A DNA stretch of 64,000 nucleotides from Hormiphora californensis (Eukaryota > Animalia > Ctenophora), in assembly GCA_020137815.1 (NCBI GenBank), contig CM035359.1, forward strand, positions 2,294,001 to 2,358,000, given 5' to 3'. The notes beneath the pieces were generated by a model, which ran no database searches, was not told where the DNA came from, and saw only the letters and a program-made list of their open reading frames with translations. Of this stretch, positions 5,520 to 63,400 are shown piece after piece. Positions within the stretch are counted from its first letter, which is position 1. Every line of letters starts with the position of its first letter. The translations under genes and the position numbers were made by a program.

Positions 5520-29159
<23,640 letters not shown>

Positions 29160-37792: not shown

Positions 37793-38244
37793 ATGGCTAA
37801 AATGGAAGCTGTATTGGTTGTTTTCCTGCTCATGACGACCCTGGCCATTGCAGCACCTGTTCTGTCAAACGAGGATCAGCTTGAGAGGTAATTAATGAAT
37901 AATTGATGAATAATTAATGAATAGTTGATGAATAATTAATGAATAATTGATGAATAATTGATGAACAATTAATGAATAATTTATGAATTATTGATGACTA
38001 TGTACTTGTAGAAAATTTAGATCTATAAGAACCTATAGGAATTTAGCTATAGCTGGTTTATAATAGATATCCATTGTCAAGTTTGAAGGTTTGTTAGCTA
38101 ATTAGCTATTTTAGTTAACGAATACTCTTCAGCAGGTCTGAACCCGTGATGCAAAACAAAGAAATCTCGGAAACCCAGCACAGAATCCAAAAGCGAGCAA
38201 AGTGTCCGCCCGCCCTGGCGAAGCGAGGATGTACTATGTTTTGA
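37793..38244 (+). CDS. Small secreted prepropeptide (candidate neuropeptide/peptide-hormone precursor, ~67 aa)
   Basis: Exon 37793-37887 (AG|gtaatt) plus exon 38133/38136-38244 give MAKMEAVLVVFLLMTTLAIAAPVLSNEDQLE(S)RSEPVMQNKEISETQHRIQKR-AKCPPALAKRGCTMF*. Confidence 0.7.
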
Positions 38245-39229
38245 ACCATTGCTAAATATTAACAATTTATTGATTTTATGTTTCCAATTTCCCCCATACA
38301 CAAATAAGTTTTTGCCCAATTTTCCCAAGAAATGAGTTTTGGTATTAAAATTAGTCTACAGATTCATTCACTGCAGCTATTTCTTCTCCGATTAAGAGTT
38401 TGATAAATCGACAGATTCATTCTGGTCCTTCGAGTAGTATAATAGCAAATGCTTTACTGCATCTCCCGCCAAAAGCATCCCCGGTCATTGAGCTGCGATG
38501 AGGATACTCTTTGGGTGAAAACACAACAATTTGTTCATTCAGAAAGTTTCTGGCCGAAATCCTATGGCAATTGAAACCAGAGTAGAATAAAATGATAAGC
38601 AAGTATTTTTTGTACAAAATAGGTATATAACGTTTACATGTATAAATTGGTACAAAATTCTCAAATACATATTTGAATTTCCTATCTCTCTGCTGATACT
38701 TTTCCGATATATATTACGGATTTAAAATGCCATCATCATTTCAAGATATTAAACGTTACGAAGGAGCTCTTCATATTTACCAGAAATCTCTAGAGCTCGA
38801 GGGCCCGATAAGTTCTGATTTTGACACTTATAATGATCATTAAAATTAGGCTCATGTCAGAGAGCGTCTCTGCCTTGCTCACGTGGTTGTCTGATGACTG
38901 AGGTGTCGTAATATATCTCCAATACATTTAACATATCTCTGATATATTTATATCTACATATATATCTATCAATGCCCGTTATTATCACAGAGAGGAAATT
39001 GGGCGGGCCCCGGAAATTGTTAGTAAAAAAGGTTCGGTATAAATTTGCTCAAAATTAAAAGATCAAGTAAAAATTCAGTCTGAAATGTCCGTGCTGGAAC
39101 ACGAGCTTCGATTTCACATGTTTTAATCTCAGTGTTCTTCTCAATACATCCTCTGATTTCATCTTTTTCACGTGTGAAAGGATCAGGTCTTGAACTCATG
39201 ATCTGGTAGCTGTTAGTTGTAGTAGAACC

Positions 39230-42200
39230 TCACCTTAGGACGACCAGCCAGAAGAGGAGTGGTAGAATGGAAAGGAAACCACTTGCACGGTCACCTGAAA
39301 CATATTTCTGTAAATGAACTGTATGATAACTTGCCTTTAGGCAAAATGCCAAGAACGTGATCGTCATACCTCTGCTGTTGTAGTAGTAGGGTCCGTAGCT
39401 GACTGATTTGGTAGGGTACATGGAGGGTAGGGGCTGTTTACAGCCAGGTTTACACGCCGGGTCTGTGCTGGGACAAAGCGCCACTTCACAATGAATATAC
39501 ACCTACAATATGATATTAGGGTGTTAATAGAAAACAAAGTGAGAACAATAATTGTTATACAATAATTGTTTATACTATACGACTGGTTTGCATCAGACCT
39601 TCCCTCAATACCCTCAGAATTTTTTCGAATGGAAGGGAAAAAGAATCCAAAAATTACACGTACCTGACCGTTGAATTCCCGATCTCTAAACTGCATCCTG
39701 AAGAAGCTGAACTGTACACGTGGTCCAGGTCCTGCCCGTTGTATCGTCAGAGTTTTATCTCTTGAACACCCATCCTCCATCAAAAAGTACCGAGTCTCGT
39801 AATCAGGCTGACCTGGATGGAAGGAGTTTATTGGTCTTCAGTCGTGCGAATGTAATGTTCATCGCTATATGATCTGTGCTTCCATCTAAAACACTAGTCA
39901 TTATATAGTCACCACATTATTACCGTTAGGAGTTGCATAGCAGGATCGGAGAAGGACATCTCGCGTATAGGTCTCATCTGTTAGTTGCACAAACACCGTC
40001 TATAATTGGAAAAAGAAGATGGTTGATATCATGACACGTGTGTCAAGAAGTAGAGCTGTTTTATATGCAACACATGATCGCACGACGCCATAAGTCTTTT
40101 GGCAAAAGATTTCATGGCCAAGATCCCATTGAAGTTCGGGTTGACGGATTACTTGTAATCTCATGACTCATATATATATATTGTACCTGGTTTGACCCAA
40201 GATCCATTACTCCATCGTTATCCTTAAAGAATGGTGTTGAGAAGTTGTCATCAATATAAAACCTCATCTGTAGCTGAGCGGCTGTGATGGACTTGATGTC
40301 ATCCTTGGCAGGGCAATCTACCGCTCCGATAACGTTGTAATCGTAGCCTGTTTGCGCAACTATACTTCTAACATAGATCTGAAATGGCAGGTTTGTGAAA
40401 TTTCATGAAAGGGGTAGGCGGTACTGCAAAAAAGGAGCAATCAAAATTTTGTTTGTGAATGATGTCAATTCCAGCAAACAAATTAGTTGATTTAAATTTT
40501 GATTGCTCCATATAATTGTTTTTATGGAATTCCAGAATTCCCATTATACCCCACACAATGCTTTCAAGAATTTTGTGATTCAATTCGACGTTTAAAACTT
40601 TAAAAGGTTTTTAAATCTGTAATGGCGTATTTTGGGCAGGGATTTTACGTAGCGGTTCATTTGGAAGATTAAAACTCATCAAGAGATGTCCATTTTACCC
40701 AAATTTCACGGAATTCACATGTCAAGTAGCGACTGATTGAGCTACTTTAGAATTTGCCAGGAATTAAGTAGCCCAAAATTGAGCCATCTTTATTGCACAA
40801 GACCCTCCTGAGTCCTGACAGAACCTTAACCATATTATTAATTTGAAATGATTTCACGGCAAAGACATTGAGAACATGATATACTCAGTCTCATAAATAC
40901 ACATACTTATTGCAAAACGAATCCTCGCCCGGACATGTCCCAACTTTGGTGACATGGACACATGTGTGCGAGATCGAAGACTGCCCGATTGAGATCGAGA
41001 CCGAGAATAGCTATTAATAGGTGGCACAAAGTCCCAACTGCAGCAGTACTCACCCTGTTTTTGTATCGGACATGTTTGTCAGGTTGAACCTCCCTGACAG
41101 TTCCACATTTTCCCTGGGTGTACCCCAGCTCGAGCTCCATTGCACCGGCCTTCACATGGGCCAGGCACCTCTTATCTGAGATAGTGTTAAACGTAATAAA
41201 CGGTTGAAGCTACGGATTTATTAAATACATCTTCCAATTAAAATAATGTAAATCTTGAACTACCTAGCGGGATGGAAAAGGAAAGATTATATTGTTGCTC
41301 GTGGGTGGTAGCTGGTTATTTCTTAGTTACGAAATAACACCCCCGCGTCTATGATAAAAAACACATGTCAAGTTGTCAGATCGTTATAGGTGCTTACGCA
41401 AGCACGTGCAGTGTCTGGGGGACTCCCACGATGCAACTCATCCTGTCCCTCCTTGACTTCCATGTCTCTTATACCCTGAGTGCCCCTTCAAGTGATTGGC
41501 CCTTGGCTCCAACAGTAACTCCTTTAAATGTCTCCCCTTCTTGACACAAATTAGTGGCTCGGGTTGGGTCCTGTCTCCCCTCCTAGTCCCTTCCACTGCC
41601 ACCCTTCAACCCCTCTCTTCAACTCATATATAATTGCTCCTGTCTCCCTTCCTAACCACCTTTCAAGTCCTCAACTAGGTACTTCCTTCAACTGCAATTA
41701 TCACGTACCTTCTGCCGTGATGGTAGGCTGATTTACTTCACCACTGTACTCGATCCTCACCAAAATCCTCTCATCACACGTGTAGTTAACTGAAATTACA
41801 ATGTGTAAATAACTGAAATTAAGTTATATACAGTCTGACCCCGATTTACCGGGGTGCTCGAGGGAACGGCGCGGGGTTTGCCCGGTAAATCGCGAGTTCT
41901 CGGTATATCGGAGTGAAAAAAGTTTATCCTCCCGGTAATTTACTGCCGGGTAAACCGGGGTTCCGGTAAATCGGGGCCGACTGTATCAGTTTGGGCAAAT
42001 TTCGTTTTTATTAAATTCTTAAAAACATTTTAAATAGGACCGATTTTTTAAATGGATTCTTAAAATTTTGCACACCCAGCTTGATCTTAATCACGGTTGT
42101 GACTGATTTTTGCAAAACGTTGAAAAATAGCTGTATTTTTATGCAAAATAGCTGTCTTTTTATGAAAAATTGGAAGCCGTAATTGACACGGACAGGGGTG

Positions 42201-45200
42201 TCAATTCTTCTTCTTTTTGATCTTTTCGTTTTCAAACTGTCAAAGAAAATGTCACGTGGCACATGAAAAAGATTCATGTCAATTGTGACATGTGCCAATT
42301 TATAGAATGAATGAACTGGCGGGGTCTCTTGACACCATCGATCGATGCCAAAAATATTCAGAACACTGAATGCAAAAGCATCGTCAAAGCTATAAAATCA
42401 TGAGAGAATTTCTCATGACTGAGAAGGATCGGAGCGGCATAGTCAATGAAGAAGTTTAATTTTCTCCTTGTCGAAACAACACTTCCTTAAATTTCTCTCA
42501 GGACCATTCATTCCAACACTATGTAAGATGTGAGGTCACTTCAGGACTTCTGCACCGGTTTAAGCAAGGCAATAGTATTTCCGGTGCTTGTTGTCAACAC
42601 TATAATAGAGAGAGATGGTATGTTGGAATGTTGGCAGGATGCCAAGCTTTTCTTTTGGTATGTTGCCAGGAATCTTAGCAATGCCGGATATTTCATTGTG
42701 CTTTACTAATCACTCATTATTCTTGGTCTAGGCATGTGGTAAAAGCTCGAGAACGCTTGCCATGCTACGCAGTCTGTCCATTCGGCCCTTTAAGCGCCTC
42801 GGGCTCGCGTAAGCTCAATGCTCATACCGGCCGAAGGCTGACAGACGAGGAACATGTCAAGATAACGCGGGTATTCTGGGCGCTAGAAGTACATTTTCAA
42901 TTTTTTTTTGGTCATCTATAATTGCTATAGGGTATATCACGATTGAGGCTGTCCCCCAAGTCGTTAAAGTTACCTCTGTAAAATCGTCCGACAGCAGTTT
43001 GGATAGTGGCAGGTTCAACGGAAACAGTGGCTCCTGTTGTTGGGTAGGATTTGTCGTCCGTCGTTAACATACCCCCACTTCCTCTTCTTCCTGTAGGAGA
43101 TTTATATTGGTTCCTCTAGAATATTCTCTAGAATTCAAGAATATTCTGTCAGACATATATCGCGCTGAACACTTCTATCTCCCTCCTAATTATGTATGAC
43201 TCCTAAGAGGGCGTGGGTCCCTGTCTGGCGCCGCGACCCCATCTGAGCGCACTGAGAATCAAATGGGGTATGTCGCCGCCATACAGCCGGGGCAGGGAAC
43301 GGGAGCCTCATGGCTATCTGGCGCCGCGACCCCATCTGAGCGCACTGAGACTCAAATATTTGATTCTCAGTGCAAATGGGGTATGGCGCCGCCATACAGG
43401 TGGGCCCGCTAGCAGTTTCTTACCACATTGGATGTCAGCGAAGGTTTCCCGAATACTTTCACAATTCCGTGATACATGCCGGGGGTTGTTGCACTGGCAC
43501 GTCCACAGTAGGTTACCATTATTAAGAGAGTTCAAACTCTTTACCGCTCCTTTACATTCACTGGTACAACTTGTCTGTGGGGAATGTGAAAATTGTGGAT
43601 AAAAGTTTTTCTCAGTTGGTCAAGACGGCCGTGTTCGTAAATTTTCCGGATTACGGCCTCAAAATGAAAACTGTGATTGTCCTTCTAGAACGATTCGCCT
43701 TTTTCTTACCTTGTCTCTACAGGCATTCATGACATTGTTGTATCGTTCCTTGCACTCCTTGTGGTGTCTGCACTCGTCCCACTGTAACTTGCAGTCCCCC
43801 GTGTACCGAACTTGAGCCTCAGTATAGGACGGACTCTGAAGGATGTCGAGGGTTGGTAAAAAGGGTTTTGAAATTTATGGACTTTAGTAAAATTGATGCT
43901 TCGTGTGAGTATAATACTTATACTTATAAGTTATAATGTTCTGGAATAATTCGCGTGCAAGAACCTTTTAGTAATCTTTTGATTTTATATTTAGTTTCTC
44001 TCGAGACTAAAAATAGAATCAAAAGTATATCCTTTAAATTTAGGCTTAAGAATTCATCATATGTTATGAAACTGTTCAGTGAACTGATTCACACTCCAAA
44101 ACATCTTACCCCGCAAACTTATTTTCCTTGGATTAACCCAACATGTCCCCGGCCCCACAAGCCGTTTGGCCCTCCTCCCATCTCTTATAAATAATACCTG
44201 TGTGTGATATTGTTTCGGTTCAACTTCCACAATGCATGTCTTTATCAGGGCTGAGAATAGCATGTCGTTACGGCCAGAGTCCCGGTCTGCCCCCTCGAAC
44301 TTGCAGTTCCTGCAGTGGATGGAGGAGTGTGTCTTACTCAACAAGGACCAGGATAGTTTGGATGTCAGTTTGGATGTCTGCGTGGTTTCAAGGGTTTAGA
44401 AAGATGGATAATATCGTAACTATAAGGAATCACGTTTCAGGTACGTTATTTTGCTATCCCAAAAATGCACAGACAAACAAACACCGCGGCCTTCTCTCAC
44501 TCCCGACGACAACTAACTACGCGACATGACCAGTTACCGCCGTGTGACACACTGTATCCATGCTCAACTCTGTGTGTCACCTTGTTAGATCGTTGTTAAA
44601 CACTCTATTAGTCGCGGAGTTATTGTACTACTCCAGCGACATATATATCGAGTACACTAGCTCACCGGGCTGCGACAAATTACAACTTGTTGGTGTTGAT
44701 GAAGATATTATTAGGACGACAAGGTTTATTATAAATCTCCTAACAAGAGAGTTAAAACCCAAAGTCTGAGACTCTCGCAGTGATAAAAGTCGTAATTTCC
44801 TTTTTCCACCAGACCACCCACACATAATTCAGGGAAGTATTGATTCCTTCCTTCTAATAGTAATCTAATAGTACCAGTTAGCACTACGCGATAAAGAATT
44901 TTGCTCATTATTATTATACGTTAGCAACCGCAACACCTAGTTTAACACATAACTCATCGCTTGAATGAGTGATAAGTTATCCGCCGAAAATAGCTCTTAC
45001 TCCACCCTCGCGGGTTATGTTATAGACTTCAAGGAACTTAGTTTTCCTTGCCTAAAGATTGCAATTGACAGGAAACAAACAAACAAACAAACAAACAAAC
45101 AAACAAACAAACAAACAAACAAACAAACAAACAAACAAACAAACAAACAAACAAACAAACAAACAAACAAACAAACTGTACTTACTGAAAGTGCATTCCA

Positions 45201-45733
45201 ATATCGTTTTCAATGAGTGCTTGGTTTGCCTCAGTACACTGCGTGGTACAATGTCCCGAACCACTTCCTGTCATCCTGAAAATGTAAGGAATTCCTTGTC
45301 TGACGAAGGAATGAAGGGGTACCTCCCGTAGAAAAACAAACTTGTTAACCTTTTTATAAATTAAGCTAGGTAGAATTCAAAAATAATAAAAAAACACATG
45401 TGCACTTACTCGAAGTCTTGGCAATTGCTTCTCTGGGCTTTTAGCAGGATGGCACAGTCTTTATCTTCATTGCAGAAATTAGTTCGAATTGCCTCACAGT
45501 TCATCTGGATTGGGGGACACGTGAGTCAATAAAAAAACTAATCTTCTTAGTGATCAAGAACTCTTCTCTGAGAATGACTCTTAGCTGTTACCATAGCAAC
45601 GCCCACTAAATCTATCTGGAATTCATGACGTCAATATGACGTATAACAGACTATTGTACCTACTATTGGACCTATATGATACACGTCACAACAACGCGTT
45701 CTTGGCGTTATATAATACTGAGTCGGGGTTGGG

Positions 45734-45786
<53 letters not shown>

Positions 45787-48700
45787 TGTGAACGTGCAGA
45801 CCGATTAGACCGCAGTGACATGCCAAATAACTGTGTGTACAAACTTATTTTTACTTCAACTAGCTCCCTCAAAACACAGACAAAAGAACTGGAAGCTTGT
45901 GTACAGCTGTATATAGGGAAACCAGTATCGCGACATTTACTTGATATAGATGTCTATTGTCTAGTACCCCTTCTCGATTTCGATTCTTGCATCCAGAATT
46001 CGATGATGCAGATGCGTCTATCTCTTTCTCGATTTCGATCCATCTGCCTCGGCCCTATATATGATTATAGAAGATTACCCCTATGAAACTCTTACCCTGG
46101 AGAGAGAAACGGTTGAGCTGCTCATGGTAATTGACTGGTCGGTAGATGCAGATATTGGGGCGGCAGTTGGTAGAAACTTGGTACTCTCATGCTCCCTGTT
46201 CAATCTCTCCTGACAATCCTCTGAAATCATAATTGGAATTAGAAATGTAGATTAGAAGTATATAGATTAAAAGTACATATATAGATTAGAAGTATACAGA
46301 TTAGAAACTAGGTGATCGGGTAGCGGTTCTCCCTGGACAGATTTTTTTCTTCAAACCCGGGCGCTGGGAGGGAGGGTCGAACAAGGCAAGGACAGATACA
46401 TTTTTGCCCTAATGTCTAATTCCCTTTGACTTGGGATTGAGAAGCTTTTTCAAACATATATTGTGTGATTATAGTGGTATGTTTTGGGTCGCGTCCGTTG
46501 AAGGGATTCTAGGAATATGAGTGTAAAATGGGTAATGAGCTGAAGGTGCTGAAGGTTGTAAAGTCATAGCTAAAGATAGTTGTACACGCGGGCCGGGAGA
46601 ATGAAAGATATATAATGGGAACGTGGCAGCTGTAGAGAGAGAGATGGGGACGTGAAAGATAGAAAGATATTCGCGACAGAGAGTTATTCTCTGTCTCGCG
46701 CATCTTTCTATCTTTATCTATCTTCTGTCAGAGAATATATAGCTTGACAGATCGATATAATGCAGCTGCAGCCGTCTAAGGAAATTCGGTGATTTGTTGA
46801 CAGAATTAGCTCGTGTCACAAAGTGACTTTGAAATCACACAGGGTGTTATGATATTATTGGCAGCTAGGAGGTTTCGGAATTGACACGAGCGAAACAAAT
46901 CCTCGGCACGAGCCACAGCTTTTCCCGCCTTTTGAAACACGATTTTAAACATGAACTGGGTTCACAAAATAACTTCCCGACAGAGGGTATGGAGATATGG
47001 CAACACACCGATGGAGGGGATGACAGCTCTTTCAATATAAGGGCTACTGCGGGCCGACATCGATGGATAGGATATAATGTTTTCATCGCCCATGGAGAGG
47101 CAATTGTCAGACAATTTGTCTATATCGGAAAGAGGCAAGAGAATAATATAAAGAGAGACAAATATACCAGATTATGAATATTTTGCCTTTGGGTATCATG
47201 CACATATGGGAGTGCAAGTGCGTATATGAAAAAAGAAGTGTTTGGACCAAAATATCCCTAGGATAAGAAGATCCAAGGAAATGAATTGAAATAAAATCAA
47301 TCTGAGTTTCCTATACCTTCAAGGCAAGCCCTCATTAGCCGACACTTTTGCTTCTCGCACATATCTTGACTTCCTGGGTTATCGTTAGCACAGGAACACT
47401 CAGAAAACCTGAAACAATTTATAGCTGTTAGGGCGCGATCACACCAAGATCTTAGAAAGAATTCTTTTGAAGCACCAAACCCAATCACACCAATATGCTT
47501 CGTTTGGTTCTTGCGCGCGTATGTCTATTGCTAGTTTTTGACTCTGAGGACTATGGTGCTCCAAATGGCTCATGTTGAATTTCTGTGTTAAATTATAAAA
47601 AGCGAACTAAAAGTGAAAAAAAAGTGAAGTGAAAACAAAGTGAAGTGAAAAAAAAGTGAAGTGAAAACAAAGTGAAGTGAAAACAAAGTGAAGTGAAAAA
47701 AAAGTGAAGTGAAAAAAAAGTGAAGTGAAAAAAAAGTGAAGTGAAAAAAAAGTGAAGTGAAAAAAAGTGAAGTGAAAAATTTTTGATTTGACCTCTTGGT
47801 GAGTCACGTGCTCTAAATGGCTCAGGTGGCTCAGGTAGGATAGACGCTTTTTATAAACCATATTGAGGCCAAACGAAAAGAGATCGAGACTTCTAGTTTT
47901 CACTAGCTGGTAGATCTACTAGATGTGTGTGCATTAGTTGGGGTGAACTTTACCATCATCTCCAGAAACGTCGTACAGAACGTCTTAAAGTTGTCATTTT
48001 TGATACACTGACCAAACTTCTTTGAGCTCAATTTACACCTTTAAAATGGATTCTAATCGAAAAATCAAGACTATATCATGGAAAGAGAATTGTCTGAAAT
48101 TTCAGACACTATATTGCAAATTTTCAGAACCCGAGTTCTAAGGGTCGTAAATCGCGTCGAAAGTGTTATGACTATGTTAAAATAGATATGACGATATGGC
48201 TTTTTTCGCCATAGCGGGTCCAAATCTCAACAAATCCATCTCAAACTTAATCAATATCTTCGAATTGATATTCCGGATGATATTACGTCATCAGCATGAC
48301 GTCATAACGTCGTGGCGTCACGTTATGACGTCAAAATGACGTCAAAAATAACATATCGTCATATCTATTTTAACATAGTCATAACACTTTCGACGCGATT
48401 TACGACCCTTAGAACTCGGGTTCTGAAAATTTGCAATATAGTGTCTGAAATTTCAGACAATTCTCTTTCCATGATATAGTCTTGATTTTTCGATTAGAAT
48501 CCATTTTAAAGGTGTAAATTGAGCTCAAAGAAGTTTGGTCAGTGTATCAAAAATGACAACTTTAAGACGTTCTGTAGGACGTTTCTGGAGATGATGGTAA
48601 AGTTCACCCCAACTAATGCACACACATCTAGTAGATCTACCAGCTAGTGAAAACTAGAAGTCTCGATCTCTTTTCGTTTGGCCTCAATATGGTTTATAAA

Positions 48701-51405
48701 AAGCGTCTATCCTACCTGAGCCACCTGAGCCATTTAGAGCACGTGACTCACCAAGAGGTCAAATCAAAAATTTTTCACTTCACTTTTTTTTCACTTCACT
48801 TTTTTTTTCACTTCACTTTTTTCACTTCACTTTTTTTTTCACTTCACTTTGTTTTCACTTCACTTTTTTTTCACTTCACTTTTTTTCACTTCACTTTTTT
48901 TTCACTTCACTTTTTTTTCACTTCACTTTTTTCACTTCACTTTTTTTTCACTTCACTTATTTTTCACTTCACTTTGTTTTCACTTCACTTTTTTTCCACT
49001 TCACTTATTTTTCACTTCACTTTGTTTTCACTTCACTTTTTTTCACTTCACTTTGTTTTCACTTCACTTTTTTTTCACTTCACTTTGTTTTCACTTCACT
49101 TTTTTTTCACTTTTAGTTCGCTTTTTATAATTTAACACAGAAATTCAACATGAGCCATTTGGAGCACCATAGAGGACAGTGAAAAGCATACAACAGCCAT
49201 CCGTGCGCAAGAACCAAACGAAACATTTTGGTGTGACTGGGTTTGGTGCTTCGAAAGAATTCTTTCGAAGATCTTGGTGTGATCGCGCCCTTACCATGGT
49301 GAATGAAGAATAGAGTTGGACCATGCAGAGGTAAAACAATTCAAGAACAGTACGAAATCAAAGCATAGCTTTAACAAAACAGAGGTGGTTGATCTATATT
49401 ATACCTACCATCGAATATAGGTTTACCTACCCGTTCATTGATGGAAAAGCGAGAAGGCTGGCAAAGGAGTCTTTACACTGTTTGTGACACGCCTGGCCCT
49501 AAAATCAGACAAGATTGTCATAATACGATCTGGGAGTATAGTTCTCACTACTATTATACAGACACTCAAATGAAATGGTTCTAGCCCCTAACAACTACTC
49601 AAATCAATTAAGGTTCACGCCCCTGCACAGGTGATAATATTTAAAACATACCCTAAGTAAACCGGGTTTTCAGTTTCCGGGTTTGTAGGGAATTAAATTT
49701 TTAGGGGCCTTAACCGGGTTGGGGGGGTTTTTTCAGGCGGGGGGGGGGGAAAAAAAAGGGGGAAAGATAATTTTTTTTTAAAGACTCATGGGTTTTGTAA
49801 CCCTTTTTTTGGAACAAATTTTTTTACTGTAATATATATGGAATGGCACTCGAAGAGTGGACTTGATTTAAGAATTATTTGTCCCTCTTCTTCTTTTGTG
49901 AATTTACTTACAAAAAATTGCCTGACTTAGATGTGTTTACAGATTAGCTCGTTCACAATGACTTTGAATCACACGGTGTTATGATATTATTGGCAGCTAG
50001 GAGGTTTCGGAATTGACACGCGAAACAAATCCTCGGCACGAGCCACAGCTTTTCCCGCCTTTTGAAACACGATTTTAAACATGAACTGGGTTCACAAAAT
50101 AGCTTCCCGACAGAGCTGGCATGGAGATATTGCCAGATGGCAACACACCGATGAAGGGGGTGACAGCTCTTTCAATATAAGGGCTACAGGCCGACATCGA
50201 TGGAATAGGATATAATGTTTTCATCGCCCATGGAGAGGCAATTGTCAGACAATTTGTCTATATCGGGAAGAGGCAGGAGAATAATATACAGAGAGACAAA
50301 TATACCAGATTATGAATATTTTGCCTTTGGGTATCATGCACATATGGGAGTGCAAAAAAAGAAGTGTTTGGAGCAAAATATCCTTAGGATAAGATCCAAG
50401 GAATTGAATTGAAATAAAATCAATCTGAGTTTCCTACCTTCAAGACAAGCCCTCATCAGCCGACACTTTTGCTTCTCGCACATATCTTGACTTCCTGGGT
50501 TGTCGTTAGCACAGGAACACTCAGAAAACCTGAAACAATTTATAGCTGTTACCATGGTTAATAGAGATTCGGAACAATTTTGCCATGGTGAACATAGAGA
50601 TGAAGAATAGAGTTGGACCATGGAGGTAAAACAATTCAAGAACAGTACGAAATCAAAGCATAGCAGAGGTGGTTCTATATTATATTATTATTAATACCTA
50701 CCATCGAATAGGTTGACCTACCCGTTCATTGATGGAAAAGCGAGAAGGCTGGCAAAGGAGTCTTTACACTGTTTGTGACACGCCTGGCCCTGAAATCAGA
50801 TTTTCATGGTCATAATCATACGATCTGGTAGTATAGTTCTCACTACTATAACAGACACTCAAATCAAATGGTTCAAGCCCCTAGCAACTACTCAAATCAA
50901 TTAAGGTTCACGCCCCTGGCAGGTGATTATATCAACACATACCTCTAAGTAAACGTGTTTGCAGTCTGTATAGTATGATTGGTAGAGGGCCTTACAGGTG
51001 GGATTGAGCGCACAGGAAGATATCAGAGACATGCATGTTGTACCTGTGGAACATGTGTTATAGCGAGGTATCTGGTAGGGGTGGAACACCTGGCGCGACC
51101 CCCGCACCAGGTGATATGTCACCAAGTAGGGGTGGAACACGCGTGTAGGGATGGAGCAATGTTAAACGGAGTTGGTAGGCTAGGGGGTCGGAACAAGTTG
51201 GAACAAGTTGGTAGGAGCTAGGGTGAAGAGAGTGAATGGTGGTTGACTTGGTTTACAATGCCGCGGTTCATGAGGGATTTATAGAATGTAACCGCATGTC
51301 ATCGCATTACACATGGAATTTATCTTAATTATTGGTAAAATTTGATTTAGTACCTTCGACGATGTTTGGTAGAAGTGCTGTAAGAGTCAGCAAAAACAAA
51401 ATCAT
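39230..51405 (-). CDS. Multi-exon protein: signal peptide, 3 GDNF-receptor-alpha/GAS1-like Cys-rich domains, ZP domain, GPI-like tail
   Basis: Exons: 51405-51354 (MILFLLTLTALLPNIVEG), ~51043-50943 (CMSLISSCALNPTCKALYQSYYTDC), ~50789-50721 or 49498-49431 (GQACHKQCKDSF), ~47409-47337 (ECSC..MCEKQKCRLMRAC), ~46220-46097, ~45504-45410, ~45276-45186, ~44309-44197, ~43836-43710 (CKLQWDECRHHKECKERY), ~43574-43424 (CTSECKGAV..LWTCQC..NCESIR), ~43091-42974, ~41789-41709, ~41175-41054 (GKCGT..YKN), ~41011-40907, ~40367-40187, ~40000-39924 (RSCYATP), ~39813-39664 (EDGC..QFSFFRMQF), 39502-39370 (VYIHCEVALC), ~39294-39230. One phase conflict near 43091. Confidence 0.8.
41831..41983. mobile_element. Tc1/mariner(pogo)-like MITE
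   Basis: TA|cagtctgaccccgatttaccgg ... ccggtaaatcggggccgactg|TA. Confidence 0.8.
43220..43399. repeat. Two copies of a small ctgtctggcgcc...ggcgccgccatacag hairpin repeat family (also ~1900, 2740, 3260, 6892, 16400)
   Basis: Shared motifs gcgcactgagaatcaaatggggtatggcgccgccatacag and inverted ends. Confidence 0.6.
47431..49290. mobile_element. 1.86-kb foldback element with PIF/Harbinger-type ends
   Basis: TTA|gggcgcgatcacaccaagatct ... agatcttggtgtgatcgcgccc|TTA. Arms extend to a ~150-bp spacer (48199-48350). Empty site gctgTTAccatgg at 50549. Confidence 0.9.
49660..49930. other. Low-quality, garbled sequence joining two versions of the same locus
   Basis: Starts as a degraded copy of 50940-51010 with homopolymer inflation. 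Confidence 0.75.
49939..50960. repeat. Diverged duplicate of 46799-47430 + 49291-49660 (probably the second haplotype)
   Basis: Colinear match with many small indels. It carries the same two exons and lacks the foldback element. Confidence 0.85.
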
Positions 51406-51470: not shown

Positions 51471-51740
51471 GATATTCAGAGTTTTTGTTATTCTCTCTGT
51501 GGCTGAACAAATGAATCAGACGGGTATAATGACGCTACCAGTTTCGAGGATCTACCTCTTCATCGGGCTCAAATTAATTTGTTTAAAGTAGTGTTGAAAA
51601 GTTTGAAAACTTTTCAACACTACTTTAAACAAATTAATTTGAGCCCGATGAAGAGGTAGATCCTCGAAACTGGTAGCGTCATTATACCCGTCTGATTCAT
51701 TTGTTCAGCCACAGAGAGAATAACAAAAACTCTGAATATC
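51471..51740. repeat. Perfect 270-bp palindrome (134-bp arms, 2-nt spacer)
   Basis: gatattcagagtttttg...gaaaagttt-ga-aaacttttc...caaaaactctgaatatc. Confidence 0.9.
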
Positions 51741-55456: not shown

Positions 55457-55656
55457 AGTGAGAGAGAGAGAAACAGAGAAAGAAGGGAGAGAGAAGAGAG
55501 GCCCCTATTTTGGTGCACCGCAGCTAGACAGGTGATGACACATGTGTGCGGTGGTGGCCCACTAAACAAGGTGCACGTGCCCATACACAGTTCCTAATCG
55601 GAGCACGCGATATAATTCCCACCACAGCTGTTATAGTTGGCAGAACTGCATGATCT

Positions 55657-57746
55657 TCTGACGTCAGATGGACAGGACGGTCCTCTGACGTCTGATGGAC
55701 AGAACAGTCCTCTGACGTCTGATGGACAGAACGGTCCTCTGACATCTGATGGACAGAACGGTCCTCTAACTTCAGATGGACAGAACAGTCCTCTGACGTC
55801 AGATGGACAGAATGGTCCTCTGACGTCTGATGGTCAGAACAGTCCTCTAACGTCAGATGGACAGAACGGTCCTCTGACGTCAGATGGACAGAACAGTCCT
55901 CTAACTTCAGATGGACAGAACGGTCCTCTGACGTCTGATGGACAGAACGGTCCTCAGTCCTCTGACGTCAGATGGACAGAACAGTCCTCTGACGTCTGAT
56001 GGACAGAACGGTCCTCTGACGTCAGATGGACAGAACGGCCTCCTCTGACGTCAGATGGACAGAATGGTCCTCTGACGTCAGATGGACAGAACGGTCCTCT
56101 GACGTCAGATGGACAGAACGGTCCTCTGACGTCTGATGGACAGAACGGTCCTCTGACGTCTGATGGACAGAACGGTCCTCTGACGTCAGATGGACAGAAC
56201 AGTCCTCTGACGTCAGATGGACAGAACGGTCCTCTGACGTCAGATGGACAGAACGGTCCTCTAACTTCAGATGGACAGAACGGTCCTCTAACTTCAGATG
56301 GACAGAACGGTCCTCTGACGTCAGATGGACAGAACGGTCCTCTGACGTCTGATGGACAGAACGGTCCTCTGACGTCAGATGGACAGAACAGTCCTCTGAC
56401 GTCAGACGGACAGAACGGTCCTCTGACGTCTGATGGACAGAACAGTCCTCTGACGTCAGATGGACAGAACGGTCCTCTGACGTCTGATGGACAGAACGGT
56501 CCTCTGACGTCAGATGGACAGAACAGTCCTCTGAAGTCAGATGGACAGAACGGTCCTCTGACGTCTGATGGACAGAACGGTCCTCTGACGTCAGATGGAC
56601 AGAAAGGTCCTCTGACGTCTGATGGAAAGAACAGTCCTCTGAAGTCAGATGGACAGAACGGTCCTCTGACGTCAGATGGACAGAACAGTCCTCTGAAGTC
56701 AGATGGACAGAACGGTCCTCTGACGTCTGATGGACAGAACGGTCCTCTGACGTCAGATGGACAGAACGGTCCTCTAACTTCAGATGGACAGAAAGGTCCT
56801 CTGACGTCTGATGGACAGAACGGTCCTCTGACGTCTGATGGACAGAACGGTCCTCTGACGGCTGATGGACAGAACGGTCCTCTGACGTCAGATGGACAGA
56901 ACGGTCCTCTGACGTCTGATGGACAGAACGGTCCTCTGACGTCTGATGGACAGAATGGTCTTCTGACGTCAGATGGACAGAACGGTCCTCTGACGTCTGA
57001 TGGACAGAACGGTCCTCTGACGTCTGATGGACAGAACGGTCCTCTGACGTCTGATGGACAGAACGGTCCTCTGACGTCAGATGGACAGAACGGTCCTCTG
57101 ACGTCAGATGGACAGAACGGTCCTCTGACGTCAGATGGACAGAACGGTCCTCGGACGTCAGATGGACAGAACGGTCCTCTGACGTCTGATGGACAGAACG
57201 GTCCTCTGACGTCAGATGGACAGAACGGTCCTCTGACGTCAGATGGACAGAACGGTCCTCTGACGTCAGATGGACAGAACGGTCCTCTGACATCTGATGG
57301 ACCGAACAGTCCTCTGACGGCTGATGGACAGAACAGTCCTCTAACGTCTGATGGACAGAACGGTCCTCTGACGTCTGATGGACAGAACGGTCCTCTGACG
57401 TCAGATGGACAGAACGGTCCTCTGACGTCTGATGGACAGAACAGTCCTCTGACGTCAGATGGACAGAACAGTCCTCTGACGTCAGATGGACAGAACGGTC
57501 CTCTGACGTCTGATGGACAGAACGGTCCTCTGACGTCTGATGGACAGAACGGTCCTCTGACGTCTGATGGACAGAACGGTCCTCTGACGTCTGATGGACA
57601 GAACGGTCCTCTGACGTCTCATGGACAGAACAGTCCTCTGACGTCTGATGGACAGAACGGTCCTCTGACGTCTGATGGACAGAACGGTCCTCTGACGTCT
57701 GATGGACAGAACGGTCCCCTGACGTCTGATGGACAGAACGGCCCTC
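55657..57746. repeat. 27-bp minisatellite (gtcctctgacgtc[a/t]gatggacagaacg) x~77
   Basis: Homogeneous tandem array. It explains the 581-aa SEDRSVHQT ORF. Confidence 0.95.
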
Positions 57747-58765
57747 TTTATTTGACAGGGAACACAAAGGTTGATCATGGCTACGATGTGCCCAATCCTC
57801 TGATGAGAGATGAGTTCAGTAGAATCAGCAAATCACAGAAGCCCAAGTTAAATTGACGAAAGGCGAATTAAGAAAATGAAGAGAATAAGGCAAGATCATG
57901 CAGATACTAAACCGAATTGACACTTGCAGTATACTCTTGCACGCGGCTGGAAATAGCATCTCCCATCTCTCACAAGATGAAGAGCAAAATGATGTGCATG
58001 GAGAAGAATGATTCGTGCAATTGCATTCTGATTAATTCAAATAATATGGCTTGATGCAAAACTAGCAAATAAACCCTCTGACCACCGTTAATAAAATTAA
58101 AAATGCAAGATTGTACGTCAATACCTGATAATTTGGAACCTTGAATATGACACCTCAAATGTTACACTGTATAAATCTCCACTCTCCCCATGTTATACCA
58201 CAGAATTTAACAGTACACAGTTTAACATGAGATTAACTCGACACTCTGACTACAAGCGGGCAACAGAGAATCGATATATACTTGGTGCAGAACTGGGCCA
58301 GCCCTGTGTGTTTGTGTGTGCGTGTGTGTGAGAATGTGTGTTTGTGTCTGTGTCCTATCGCGAAGGTGCTTGTTTTGACGCTGAGTTCTATTAAAAGCAC
58401 AGCATCTTCGCGCGCGCGTGTGTGTCGCTTTGGTGACACGCGCGCGCGTTTTCTGAGATCTGAGAGAGAAGAGCGATTGGTGTTTTGAGAGTGAGTTTTC
58501 TTTTGTCGGAGCGAAGCAACTTTCAAAAGCGTGTGTTCTCTTAGTCAACTGAACTGTAACAATCCTTTACCGTTACTTTTACATTCACAAAAATAAAAGA
58601 CAACGTGTTTACTTTCGCCTTTACGCTCCAGCTGACGGGTACGCCCCATACGTGTCACGAAACCACCCCAAGAACGTCCCTTTCCAAACACCCCCGATTG
58701 CCGTCCTTACTTTACACCATCTGGTGACTTCCAAGGAAACGGACCCATCGAAGTAAACTATCACC

Positions 58766-60559
58766 ATGAATAACCACCGTGCCCACTCACCGGTTGACAG
58801 CCTTGCCGGTGACATTCAACCTGGAATGGTGGCGCGACGTGTCTTGGAGTACTCCACACCACGCAACCGGGATATCCGACTGAATCAGAGTGTTGTTAAT
58901 CGCCAAAGAGCACATTTACCCAATACTTCCGTTGATGCTCAGATCGTTGAACCTCCGAGGGTCAGACGATCGTTGTATGAAAGATCCCTTGACACTACCA
59001 GAAGAGTACCAGAACCGAGAGCCAATGCATCGATCATCAGCCAAGAGCCACTGTCTCAATGGGATACTATCGATCAGTTTGATCTCAACTCCACAGTAGC
59101 TTCCAGTCGACAGGTGCGGCCTAAGAGAGTCTTCAATGGCCGGCAGCATCAACAGAACCAACAACCCAGCAGACTGCAGGACCAGCGTCCGCCAGAATCA
59201 TACCTAGCAGATTTGAACATTTCACGAGTTGATTCAGGCCGAGAATCAGTGATTTTGCAACATGCTGATGCAGTTGCACCAAGGATCATGTCAAGTTCCC
59301 CGAAACGAGAGAATACGAGAGAAAGGATCCGAATCCCTGAAGATAGACCCAAGACGCCAGAAAAAAGAATGTCACGGATTTTGAACCTATCAAGAGCTCC
59401 CAGTCGCCGAAACACTTCATCAACCAAACCAGACATCAAACAGTCATCATCAAGCAAACCGAACGTGCCCATAGCTCCCGCGGTAGCTCCAACAAGTTAC
59501 CCAGTAGCAAATCAACTGAACACGCAACCAACTCAGATCAACCAAAACAGAGCCCCTCTCCCTGGAATAAAACCGCCAAAGTTCAAGGAAGGAAGTTGTC
59601 TGAAATCATACCTGGAAAGGTTTGAGGATTACCTTTCAACGGCGACCGTAAACCCTCAGGATGTGCGTGGAATCCTAATAAACTGTATAAAGTGCGATCA
59701 AACATACAGGCGGATACGCCGCCTGAAGTTCAGCCAGGAAGAAATGGCCGATCCAAATAAGCTGCTCAAGTTCATCCGTGACACCATACTGAACGATGCT
59801 GCCATCGCCGAGACAAATCGTTTGGAGCTAAAGGACATCAAACAAGAAGAATTCGAGTCGGTAACTGATTTCGCAGAGAGAATACACCGGGCAGCAGAAC
59901 TGGCGTTCCCAGATGAATCAGATGATCGTATCAACGCCAACAAGATAGACGCTCTACAAGATGGTCTCCACGACCGTGATGTTGCTAAAGATGTCTGTGA
60001 CTGGAAGAAACAGGATATCGCCTTCGAGACTCTAGTTGCTGAAGCGGAGAGAGCAGCGACCCAGAATAAAATTTTCAAGAGGGGCGGTGCTGAATCTGGA
60101 GCCACAGTCTACGCGATCCGGAACGAGGGACCACGAACGATCCAAAACCCGCCTTACCAGAGAAAGACTTGGAACCCTTGCAAGTTCTGTAAGAAGACGA
60201 ACCACTCAGAATCACACTGTAGGTTCAAGATAATTTGCCAACTATGTGGCCAAGATTTACATGATGCCAAGAACTGTCCCACGATATCGAGCAATATCCA
60301 AGCAAACATGAACCCCGTGCAGACTCTACAAACCACGAACTTCCAACCACAGGCTTTCACAACTGGTAGTAGGAGACAAGCTACACAGTTAATACCTGGA
60401 ACGAGAGAGCATGATAGGGCTAATGGCCTATGCTACATCTGCCACGAGAATGGACACCTTAGCAGAGCTTGCAATAACCGAGGTAGGCAGTTAAACGAGA
60501 GAGCGGTCGGAGATTTGAACAACACGAACACACACCTGAACTCCGGCCGCGTGAACTAA
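58766..60559 (+). CDS. Gag with three CCHC zinc knuckles
   Basis: KPPKF..YLERFEDY, QEEFESVTDFAERI (MHR-like), CKFCKKTNHSESHC, CQLCGQDLHDAKNC, CYICHENGHLSRAC. Confidence 0.9.
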   Translation: MNNHRAHSPVDSLAGDIQPGMVARRVLEYSTPRNRDIRLNQSVVNRQRAHLPNTSVDAQIVEPPRVRRSLYERSLDTTRRVPEPRANASIISQEPLSQWDTIDQFDLNSTVASSRQVRPKRVFNGRQHQQNQQPSRLQDQRPPESYLADLNISRVDSGRESVILQHADAVAPRIMSSSPKRENTRERIRIPEDRPKTPEKRMSRILNLSRAPSRRNTSSTKPDIKQSSSSKPNVPIAPAVAPTSYPVANQLNTQPTQINQNRAPLPGIKPPKFKEGSCLKSYLERFEDYLSTATVNPQDVRGILINCIKCDQTYRRIRRLKFSQEEMADPNKLLKFIRDTILNDAAIAETNRLELKDIKQEEFESVTDFAERIHRAAELAFPDESDDRINANKIDALQDGLHDRDVAKDVCDWKKQDIAFETLVAEAERAATQNKIFKRGGAESGATVYAIRNEGPRTIQNPPYQRKTWNPCKFCKKTNHSESHCRFKIICQLCGQDLHDAKNCPTISSNIQANMNPVQTLQTTNFQPQAFTTGSRRQATQLIPGTREHDRANGLCYICHENGHLSRACNNRGRQLNERAVGDLNNTNTHLNSGRVN

Positions 60560-63400
60560 CTCAGCGTACAATGACCCCGGCACAGAAAAAGGATATCAAG
60601 AAGAACAGGGTGACCACACCTGAATCTGTGCCGGTAGAATGCTTCTGGGATCCACCACGATCAGAGGAGGTGCATCCTAGAGAAGATGAAGGGGATACAG
60701 CAACATCGTTAAACAGCACACACGCTATAGCGGATACTGAAATAACACCCGATGAGAATGTTAGTGGTCTCTCCTCAGCATCCGATGTAGACGTCGAATC
60801 GAGGGACTTGCTAGTCACTGCAAAGTTATCCCCAAGAACAAAGAAAACGGAAAAAGTGGTCATCCGAAAGCAGGAGAAGAATCAATCCCACACTGACGTG
60901 AGCGATGAGAAAAATGAAATAGTCGATAGTTCAGCAGTGGTTGAGGTCGAGGGCAACAATGAGGACGATGTTATCCCTGAACCCAAGACCGAACGGAAGA
61001 AAAAGAGAAACAAGAGGAGCAAGGCAGCGAAAGTGAAAGCCCTCTCTGGAGAAGAAATACGGAAATCTCAAGAAATTATTGTAAACGGACTCATCTATGG
61101 CCCAGCATGGTGTGAGGATCAAACTAAACACCGGGTGCGCATGTTCATCGATACAGGAAGCCAAGTTAACCTTATTGACTGGACAACTGTATGTAAGTAC
61201 GGGCTAATGTCTGAGATCCGTGAGACAAACAGAAAGTTGAGAGATTTCAGCGGAAATCGGATACCTTGCAGAGGCGCCATCTCCTTGTGTATGATAGTCG
61301 GAGGAGCCACCATTAATCTGGTCAACTTCGTGGTGTGCGAAGGAATGGATACAGATATTCTATTAGGTGACCCATTCTGTCGTAGCACAGGAGCCGCCTT
61401 GGACTATACGAACGCTGAACTAAGAGTCCCAAATGGTGAACCAGTACCTTTCCTGCCAAGACCAAGAAGCACCAAGAAGATTCTCCAGATAAGGTGGGGA
61501 GAAACTACCACAATACCACCTCGTACTATGGGGTATGTCGTAGGATCCCTGAAGGAAGATTGTCTAGGTGATACGATCGGTCTTGTCTCAACTGATTGGT
61601 CACGGAAAAATAATGGCTTACTCATTGGTGACGCAATTGCCGAAGCTATGGAAGGAGACATTCCCATGAGAGTTTTGAACTTTAGCGAGGAGCCGATAAC
61701 CCTCCGAAGGGGTGATAAAGCCGCTAAATTCCGCCCAGTGCCAGAGTACGACCCTTATTCTAGAGTGGAATGGGAAGACCGAATCCAATTTCTCCGTGAG
61801 TCTGAGGAACCGGAAGTCGAGAAATGGACAAAGGAAGAGCTATTCGAGCGTCTAAAAGTAAAAACTGCATCCAGAAACCTCACGAAACAACAGGCTCAAG
61901 ATCTACAAGACATCATTTGGGAGCACAGGGATTGTTTTGCATACGATGAGTATGATCTCGGTTCCTGCAATATGTACAAAGCTACGATCAAGTTGAAGGA
62001 AGGGGCTACACCTCAGTGGACCCCTCCATTCCCTTGCCCATACAAGCTTGAGGGGGAGATGCAGAAAACAATCGATGAGATGGTGAAAACGAATGTGGTG
62101 GAGATCCTTCCGCAACGGTCAGATTGGAACTCACCAACATTCCTGGTACGAAAGAAAACACCTAAAGGGCAGCCTCAGCGTTACAGGCTTGTGTGCGACC
62201 TAAGGAACGTGAACAAGATGTGTATGCCAGCAAAACTTCCCATTGGCTCATTTGGATCATGTCTTGGATAAAATCGGCCAGGACAAGATATTCTCCTCTT
62301 TTTGACCTTACCCGAGGATACTGGCAGCTTCCCTATGATGAATCCTCGAAACAGATCACTGCCTTCTTGTATAAGAACACCCAGTACGCATTCTCGAAGA
62401 CAGTGATGGGACATCGATCATCCGGACCATCTTTCTGTGATATGATGAATCGTCTGCTCGGATCTCTCCCGATAGAACAAGTTGTCCAAATTTGTGGACG
62501 ACCTCCTCCTATCTTCTGTCACAGCTGACCAGCACCTTGATCGGTTGGAACGGCTTCTATCCAGATTGTATGGTGCGAACCTCAAGATTTCACCCGACAA
62601 AAGTCAGCTGATGAGAGATTGCAGTTGATTTCGTTGGAGGTTCGTGTCAGCGGTGGCGGTATAAGTATCACTGAAGACCGTGTAGCTGACCTCCTAGCAC
62701 TCCGTGAGCCTGAATCAAAGAAAGAGGTCATGCAAGCAATGGGTGCCCTGAACTATGTGAGAAAGTGGATTCCAGCCTACAGTTCTATCAGTAAGCCAAT
62801 ATTCGCTTCTATACGCGGGGGAAAGGAGTGCAAGTTCAAATGGACCAAAGAGTGTAGTGAAGCGTACGCCAAGCTGAAGCAGCTCGTCGCGGAAAGTACA
62901 CAGCTTGCAATACCGAATCCGAGGATCCCTACAGCTCCTACTGGGTCACACTAGATGCCAGTGAGCGAGGTTTAGGTGCCTCCTTATCCAGGAATGGGTA
63001 ACCATGATGGAGTAGAGGAACGAAGACGATTGTCGATTACATATAAGCCAGAGCATCCCCCAGAGTACAAGAAATCGCGCAGGACAGACGAAAGCTGAGT
63101 TGAGGCTCTATCCCGCAGCAATCCAAAACACTGGGACCATCTATCTTTACAACGTGGAAGAGTTTTGTCTCATCATAACAGACTGTTTATCCTATGGTTA
63201 AAGCCGAGGGTACCCTTTTCACGAAACCAGGACAACGCGCGGTTTGATCAAGAAAAGTCTGAAGTTAGCCGAATTCACACTTCAAAACTCCGGACATTTT
63301 TAAGTGGCCGAAAAACAAGATGGTGACTGGTTGTTCGAGGTGTCAGCCTTCGCCAACCCAAGGAACGAAGCCGCCGAAACACAAACGACACGCACAATCA
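60487..63400 (+). pseudogene. Pol (protease, dUTPase-like fold, RT, RNase H), frameshifted after ~62250
   Basis: FIDTGS protease, WNSPTFLV, RLVCDLRNVN, FDLTRGYWQL, FVDD (~62490), LNYVRKWI, LDASERGLGA (~62950). Indel density rises toward the window end (decay or poor consensus). Confidence 0.85.
60490..60550 (+). promoter_or_regulatory. Putative -1 ribosomal frameshift signal (G_TTA_AAC + stem-loop)
   Basis: Heptamer at 60490-60496, 6-nt spacer, 10-bp stem gcggtcggag/ctccggccgc. The pol frame is -1 and open from 60487. Confidence 0.7.

Follow-up and report, generated by a model that had tools for sequence, protein, structure and literature searches.

What might be the role of a gene in which cysteine repeats of the GAS1 type precede a ZP module? 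Within the window analysed here, a stretch of 64,000 nucleotides of the ctenophore Hormiphora californensis (GCA_020137815.1, CM035359.1, positions 2,294,001 to 2,358,000), six-frame reading together with a listing of splice sites delineates a minus-strand gene at 51405–39230. It comprises 18 exons and 17 introns, the latter all of the GT-AG type: exons 1–5 at 51405-51354, 51043-50943, 50789-50722, 50529-50438 and 46220-46096; exons 6–10 at 45504-45410, 45275-45186, 44309-44198, 43835-43710 and 43574-43424; exons 11–14 at 43090-42974, 41789-41709, 41175-41054 and 40378-40187; and exons 15–18 at 39999-39924, 39812-39664, 39502-39370 and 39294-39230. The spliced sequence of 1947 nt translates into 648 aa, with a single terminal stop and an otherwise open frame. 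Just one frame is free of stops in 16 of the 18 exons, and it is the one demanded by the flanking phases. Scored against leave-one-out matrices, all 17 acceptors lie above the 93rd percentile of AG sites and 16 of 17 donors above the 94th, the remaining donor ranking at the 73rd, although this scoring is partly circular because the sites were picked by eye. The encoded domains are, in order, a signal peptide, repeat 1, an S/T/P spacer, repeats 2 and 3, a T/S linker, ZP-N, ZP-C and a hydrophobic tail. As read from the spliced model, this architecture of the predicted protein is very likely correct.

The preliminary description of this DNA had proposed that the cysteine-repeat and ZP exons splice into one gene, as the matching phases and the open frame of the model bear out, but had noted a phase conflict near 43091, where the two parts meet. 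There is none. Exon 11 (43090-42974, minus strand) encodes a Thr/Ser-rich linker from the repeats to the ZP module, with a minimal R-x-x-R site at its end. Its sole open frame has phase 1 at both boundaries; the two alternative frames both contain stops and were rejected. Two adjacent genes, or a mis-assembly, would place the repeat and ZP exons on separate transcripts. Such a reading could point to a model built from the genomic sequence and to an assembly flaw at about 49650-49930, yet this flaw falls inside repeat 1 and away from the repeat/ZP junction, the copy of exon 4 through exon 18 is continuous with matching phases, neither a signal peptide nor a start exon was found for the ZP part, and the repeat part has no stop. 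We regard it as highly improbable. RNA reads from one run cover, within 39000-45050, only a DNA repeat at 41829-41976 and are uninformative on expression. Intron 17 (75 nt) preserves the reading frame and contains no stop; a form retaining it would hence end in an unchanged tail.

Exons 2-4 recur at 47317..49830 on the minus strand, in a second copy that probably represents the other haplotype. Its exon 2 (about 49650-49830) is garbled and homopolymer-rich, its exon 3 (49498-49431) is identical over 68/68 nt and its exon 4 (47408-47317) carries three synonymous changes. Tandem use of both exon 3-4 copies was rejected, since exon 4 exits in phase 1 and exon 3 enters in phase 0. The duplication is probably an assembly artefact, and we infer that two haplotypes were concatenated where a read of low quality ended. 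Intron 3 of the second copy harbours a 1.86-kb foldback insertion (47431-49290) with a duplicated TTA, which the first copy lacks. This element has terminal inverted repeats and internal 11-bp tandem arrays, and we take it to resemble an insertion of the Harbinger/Tourist type.

At the 5′ end of the gene, exon 1 (51354..51405, minus strand) provides the start codon and a predicted signal peptide (aa 1-17, hydropathy above 2). A strong splice acceptor (99th percentile) lies 4 nt upstream of the ATG and is a possible trans-splice site; in the control, 146 of 1500 random ATGs had a strong acceptor within 25 nt. Three other genes have weaker acceptors 4-19 nt upstream of their starts (95th, 88th and 90th percentile). 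Further upstream lies a perfect palindrome (51471..51740; 134-bp arms, 2-nt spacer) whose arms hold spliced-leader sequence, at 51568-51603 on the minus and 51608-51643 on the plus strand: two exact 36-nt matches to the Hormiphora spliced leader, as compared to 0 in 100 shuffles. This leader has been printed for the ctenophore Hormiphora and the motif has also been reported in Mnemiopsis (PMC8527503). Its presence in the window by itself makes a comb jelly very likely as the host, and supports the early-branching host that had been raised as a condition in the preliminary description. The sequence after the leader is non-GT in each arm, as would be seen at an mRNA 5′ end, and the palindrome may have arisen by retro-insertion or during library preparation. 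Rfam matches on it all stayed below the gathering score and reflect the hairpin.

The closest point of comparison in the same window is an Ig-ZP gene on the plus strand (5520-29160), which encodes a signal peptide, several Ig domains and a ZP module with a long linker. Only its ZP exons were modelled; those for ZP-N and ZP-C match Pfam, and a PDB search with one exon of this neighbour returned none or unrelated matches. Its introns accommodate a methyltransferase gene nested on the opposite strand (11986-13565, minus strand), with relatives at 86% and 64% identity, and a 937-aa open reading frame with a partial upstream duplicate (19499-24013, plus strand). By eye, the latter resembles a Penelope-like reverse transcriptase with a GIY-YIG end, though without a Pfam match at E 0.1. 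A nested gene and acceptors ahead of start codons fit ctenophore genomes as described, albeit non-specifically (PMC8527503). Elsewhere in the window are a short plus-strand exon (37793-37888) that faces the 3′ end of the gene studied here and encodes the beginning of a small secreted protein, including its signal peptide; a lengthy tandem array with a 27-nt unit and more than one open frame (55520-57860); and Gag- and protease-like open reading frames of an LTR retrotransposon (58757-62954, plus strand; aspartyl protease E 6.8e-08) with pol in several frames.

Are the cysteine repeats of the GDNF/GAS1 type? All three that had been proposed are found in the spliced frame. Repeat 1 (exons 2-4; 50438..51043, minus strand) spans Cys21-Cys102 and displays the ten-Cys pattern of the family plus extra cysteines, with spacings of 6,5,10,9,3,18,1,10,4,5 followed by a further Cys107 in exon 5. 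Repeats 1 and 2 are separated by the Ser/Thr/Pro-rich spacer of exon 5 (46096..46220, minus strand; 16 of 39 residues being S, T or P). Repeat 2 (exons 6-8; 44198..45504, minus strand), recognised by its Cys spacing and by alignment to the other repeats, is degenerate, having eight cysteines (7,5,10,12,3,18,22). The absent eighth and ninth presumably constitute one disulfide pair in the connectivity of GFRalpha. Repeat 3 (exons 9-10; 43424..43835, minus strand) is a complete 10-Cys GAS1/GFR-type domain (6,5,10,5,3,18,1,9,11). The C-x3-C-x18-C spacing of GAS1 occurs in all three. A search with the Cys pattern, written after the sequence had been seen, gave two matches here as compared to one in 20000 shuffles. 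Aligned to each other, repeats 1 and 3 are clearly related (score reached by 0/2000 shuffles) and repeats 1 and 2 weakly so (33/2000), while no relation was detectable between repeats 2 and 3 (236/2000), marking repeat 2 as the weak one of the three.

Database searches with single exons agree with this assignment. Among 13 exons queried against Pfam, PF02351 (gathering cut-off 22 bits) matched exon 2 (E 0.0027, 18.8 bits, positions 1-27 of 87) and exon 10 (E 0.017, 16.3 bits, positions 39-87, i.e. 49 of 87), PF00100 matched two exons, one match to Myb was unrelated and eight exons had none. The HMMER check envisaged in the preliminary description therefore came out in part: both models were found, each on two of the 13 exons, and no single-exon score attained its gathering cut-off, in the case of PF02351 because the queries were single exons. 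In the PDB, 11 of 11 matches of exon 2 were GFRalpha-family chains (best E 0.052), and the better of two matches of exon 10 was GAS1 (7rhq_G, E 0.097), with a gapless alignment to both GAS1 domains over C-x3-C-x18-C-x-C. Exons 4, 6 and 9 yielded no relevant PDB match, and repeat 2 had neither a Pfam nor a relevant PDB match with exon queries; AlphaFold on exon 10 alone returned a pLDDT of 44.5. Together, PF02351, the GFRalpha and GAS1 structures and the Cys pattern support the proposed domain type, all single-exon scores being below cut-off.

A pattern shared by GFRalpha and GAS1 had been suggested, of which the GAS1 half holds (three of three repeats) and the GFRalpha half does not. Like GAS1 (7rhq_G; PF02351), the predicted protein combines a signal peptide, GDNF/GAS1 domains and a GPI-type tail with C-x3-C-x18-C-x-C spacing and without an RRR motif. 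It differs in that GAS1 is a 282-aa chain with two domains, whereas here three repeats and a ZP module precede the anchor, and in that the host is likely outside Bilateria. The repeats might act as a GAS1-like lipid shuttle, binding a lipid or, as GAS1 does with Hedgehog, a lipid-modified protein, with the ZP stalk as a mere spacer from the membrane; for this speak the GAS1 spacing of all repeats and GAS1 as the best PDB match of exon 10. Yet that match reaches only E 0.097 and Hedgehog ligands are reportedly absent from ctenophores, so we hold this reading to be very unlikely. With GFRalpha1-4, GFRAL and Gfrl, the protein shares 10-Cys domains, the number of three repeats and a GPI anchor (predicted here), and repeat 3 has the 6,5,10 start and the 1,9,11 end of the spacing of rat GFRalpha1 D3. 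The C5-C6 and C6-C7 spacings, however, are 3 and 18 here, as opposed to 7 and 27 in rat GFRalpha1 D3 and 7 and 14-16 in D0 and D1 of Drosophila Gfrl (PMC3527400). GFRalpha proteins further differ in lacking a ZP module and in possessing the RRR motif, which domain 2 uses for ligand binding (PMC7299427). This motif is absent from all three repeats, which disfavours the predicted protein as a GDNF receptor.

Is the ZP module complete, and would it polymerise? ZP-N is encoded by exons 12-14 (part; 40313..41789, minus strand; Cys381, 407, 427 and 466), the short ZP-N/ZP-C linker lies entirely within exon 14 (40286..40312, minus strand) and ZP-C is encoded by exons 14 (part)-17 (39370..40285, minus strand; Cys528, 549, 588, 593, 600 and 604), with a GP-containing external hydrophobic patch (about 39403-39383, minus strand) following an Arg-free loop. 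All ten canonical cysteines are thus in place. PF00100 matched ZP-C exons 16 and 17 (E 0.00039 and 0.026, below the gathering score), uromodulin was the best PDB match for both, and six of the seven PDB matches of exon 17 were ZP proteins. The ZP-N exons had no Pfam match and, for exons 13 and 14, none or unrelated matches in the PDB; ZP-N was assigned from its Cys pattern, the four cysteines aligning with those of the neighbour's ZP-N, which has a PF23344 match. Over the whole module, the alignment to the neighbouring Ig-ZP gene reaches a z of 10.3. The full ZP module announced in the preliminary description is accordingly borne out for ZP-C, and its ZP-N half is probable from the alignment to the neighbour.

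The same neighbour served as control for the elements linked to filament formation. From the fourth Cys of ZP-N to the end of strand A of ZP-C, we count 19 residues here and 37 in the neighbour. The linker is hence about 18 residues shorter and falls below the roughly 22-26 residues of the uromodulin type; as it resides wholly in one exon, a missed exon cannot explain its shortness. The stretch from the last Cys to the external hydrophobic patch holds no Arg and two isolated Lys, as compared to eight Arg in the neighbour, where they form a run that acts as its putative cleavage site. The earlier statement that a polybasic site is missing is therefore right for this interval, but the protein does contain minimal R-x-x-R sites outside it, one at 373 directly ahead of ZP-N and one at 627 after the patch. 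At position -10 relative to the fourth Cys, the neighbour keeps an Arg that is absent here and presumably corresponds to R415 of the uromodulin fg loop, and the FXF motif reads MQF here and FQF in the neighbour. By these marks the neighbour's module appears to be of the polymer type. In uromodulin, a 24-residue linker, R415 and the FXF motif have each been tied to filament formation, and mutation of the fg-loop Arg abolishes polymerisation (PMC7737619). For endoglin and betaglycan, in turn, the inability to polymerise has been ascribed to a short linker and a missing cleavage site (Saito et al., PMC5464963; also PMC7737619). On this basis the ZP module studied here is probably non-polymerising, bearing in mind that the linker rule derives from two vertebrate proteins and our comparison from one control gene of the same genome.

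The opposite reading would make the protein a structural matrix subunit akin to uromodulin and GP2, which, freed by a non-furin protease or a phospholipase, builds, caps or co-polymerises into apical filaments decorated by the repeats. Both known proteins resemble it as GPI-anchored ZP proteins with N-terminal Cys-rich domains and the same C-x4-C-x6-C-x3-C end of ZP-C, but carry EGF/D8C domains in place of GAS1-type repeats. The canonical ZP cysteines, uromodulin as best PDB match and the two Lys in the loop before the patch are in keeping with such a subunit, as is the precedent of uromodulin itself, a GPI-anchored protein whose RFRS site hepsin cleaves in a step tied to filament formation (PMC4755741). 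Against it stand the shortened linker and the Arg-free loop, as well as the missing fg-loop Arg and the degenerate FXF: linker length, RFRS site and fg-loop Arg are all features of uromodulin without counterpart here, and elements of this kind are required for its filaments (PMC7737619, PMC4755741). We thus consider a matrix subunit unlikely, and the preliminary description's option of a matrix protein less likely than its other one, a membrane-retained co-receptor.

Retention at the membrane would be a matter of the C-terminus. Exon 18 (39230..39294, minus strand) encodes a GPI-like tail of 17 uncharged residues, followed by one residue and the stop, which leaves no cytoplasmic tail. Its mean hydropathy is 2.27, the best 19-aa window outside the signal peptide scoring 1.61, and small residues are found upstream by inspection. 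The hydrophobic, GPI-like C-terminus that had been described is thus confirmed; it fits a GPI signal, and anchoring is predicted by analogy with studied proteins, GFRalpha1-4 and GAS1 being GPI-linked (PMC7299427). The tail of the neighbouring Ig-ZP protein is much alike.

What, then, could the protein do? With no cytoplasmic part and no filament signature, it would most simply hold its N-terminal domains at the surface for a partner. We envisage a GPI-anchored surface protein in which a non-polymerising ZP module forms the membrane-proximal stalk for three GAS1-type domains. A secreted signal, for which a member of the TGF-beta family is the most plausible candidate, would likely be bound by these domains and passed on to a transmembrane receptor encoded elsewhere. 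As judged from studied proteins, the hydrophobic patch would stay bound and no filament would form, while signalling would proceed through the partner, as expected where a cytoplasmic tail is missing; that the repeats are shed by cleavage at the R-x-x-R site ahead of ZP-N is a guess. Because the studied carriers of these modules (GAS1, GFRalpha, endoglin and betaglycan) are co-receptors, the reading we put forward, tentatively and at just short of an even chance, is that of a co-receptor that is GPI-anchored, forms no filaments and probably serves a ligand of the TGF-beta family, this ligand class being guesswork. The ZP-C cysteines and the best structural matches count against it, being uromodulin- or GP2-like, i.e. 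those of GPI-anchored polymers.

Regarding the ligand, ctenophores are not known to have Hedgehog ligands. GDNF ligands were not found in invertebrates (PMC3527400), and Mnemiopsis is described as having nine ligands and four receptors of the TGF-beta pathway, whereas the known families of its antagonists are all missing (PMC3169577). Together, this favours a TGF-beta ligand. The likeness to endoglin and betaglycan (TGFBR3), an N-terminal region on a membrane-proximal ZP module with a short linker and no consensus cleavage site, lends independent support to the comparison drawn in the preliminary description, but is probably convergent. Those proteins carry orphan domains and end in a transmembrane helix with a cytoplasmic tail, where this one has Cys repeats and a GPI-like tail, and ZP-C of endoglin contains one disulfide and a free dimerising Cys, as opposed to six cysteines here. 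GAS1 is a Hedgehog co-receptor. In endoglin, ligand binding is the task of the orphan domain, and the ZP module acts as a stalk through which the protein dimerises (PMC5464963). The idea that both modules bind cystine-knot ligands is accordingly a guess.

Binding of a soluble factor is not obligatory for domains of the GFR type, as illustrated by a tested invertebrate relative, Drosophila Gfrl, which did not mediate Ret signalling and interacts with FasII instead (PMC3527400). Accordingly, the protein might act in ligand-independent adhesion or recognition, a GPI-anchored, non-polymerising molecule binding a membrane partner, for example of the Ig superfamily, in cis or in trans. The Gfrl-FasII/NCAM precedent, invertebrates without GDNF ligands (PMC3527400), the lack of RRR and the Ig-ZP GPI-type gene about 10 kb away would all suit such a role; proximity of genes is no evidence of partnership, however, and the repeat spacing is GAS1-like and unlike that of Gfrl. 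We deem adhesion rather unlikely, though deserving of consideration, and retain the co-receptor as the preferred reading. By the features compared, the predicted protein would fall outside the GFRalpha, GAS1, endoglin/betaglycan and polymerising ZP families.

Searches for homologues added little. Exon 16 gave no candidate among longer proteins and, among 1.84 billion representatives, two matches, both to unrelated bacterial-type repeat proteins. A word search with four exons left 0 of 136 candidates at E 10, using a weak profile from non-homologous exons. In metagenome contigs, exon 14 found 0 of 116, and exon 10 found four of 412, all chance matches on one 8-mer and none matched by the model. 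The ESM Atlas returned EGF-like and phage clusters only, at 0.90 or below, which is uninformative. These blanks are weak because all queries were 64 aa or less. In the literature, none of the matches listed described GDNF/GAS1 domains fused to a ZP module, or their occurrence in ctenophores, most subscription papers being outside the scope, and a 2026 review of ZP evolution does not mention GDNF, GFR or GAS1. GAS1-type repeats joined to a ZP module are thus apparently an undescribed domain combination, for which automatic database annotation may already exist.

Finding a GPI-type gene with three such repeats in a ctenophore would push this domain and the GPI-anchored layout much deeper in animals, and suggests that the GAS1 spacing is old. 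The nine ligands and four receptors of Mnemiopsis offer a small, testable set for what the domain bound before GDNF ligands, and the gene provides a natural test, outside vertebrates, of the rule that a short linker prevents polymerisation. Fusion of GAS1-type domains to a ZP stalk that does not polymerise may even have given ctenophores a betaglycan-like co-receptor of their own, a speculation that we rate as doubtful. If true, binding of TGF-beta-family ligands by the GAS1/GFRalpha domain predates GDNF ligands, RET signalling and Hedgehog, the design of a short-linker ZP co-receptor arose twice, and a shed form could replace the TGF-beta antagonists that ctenophores lack.
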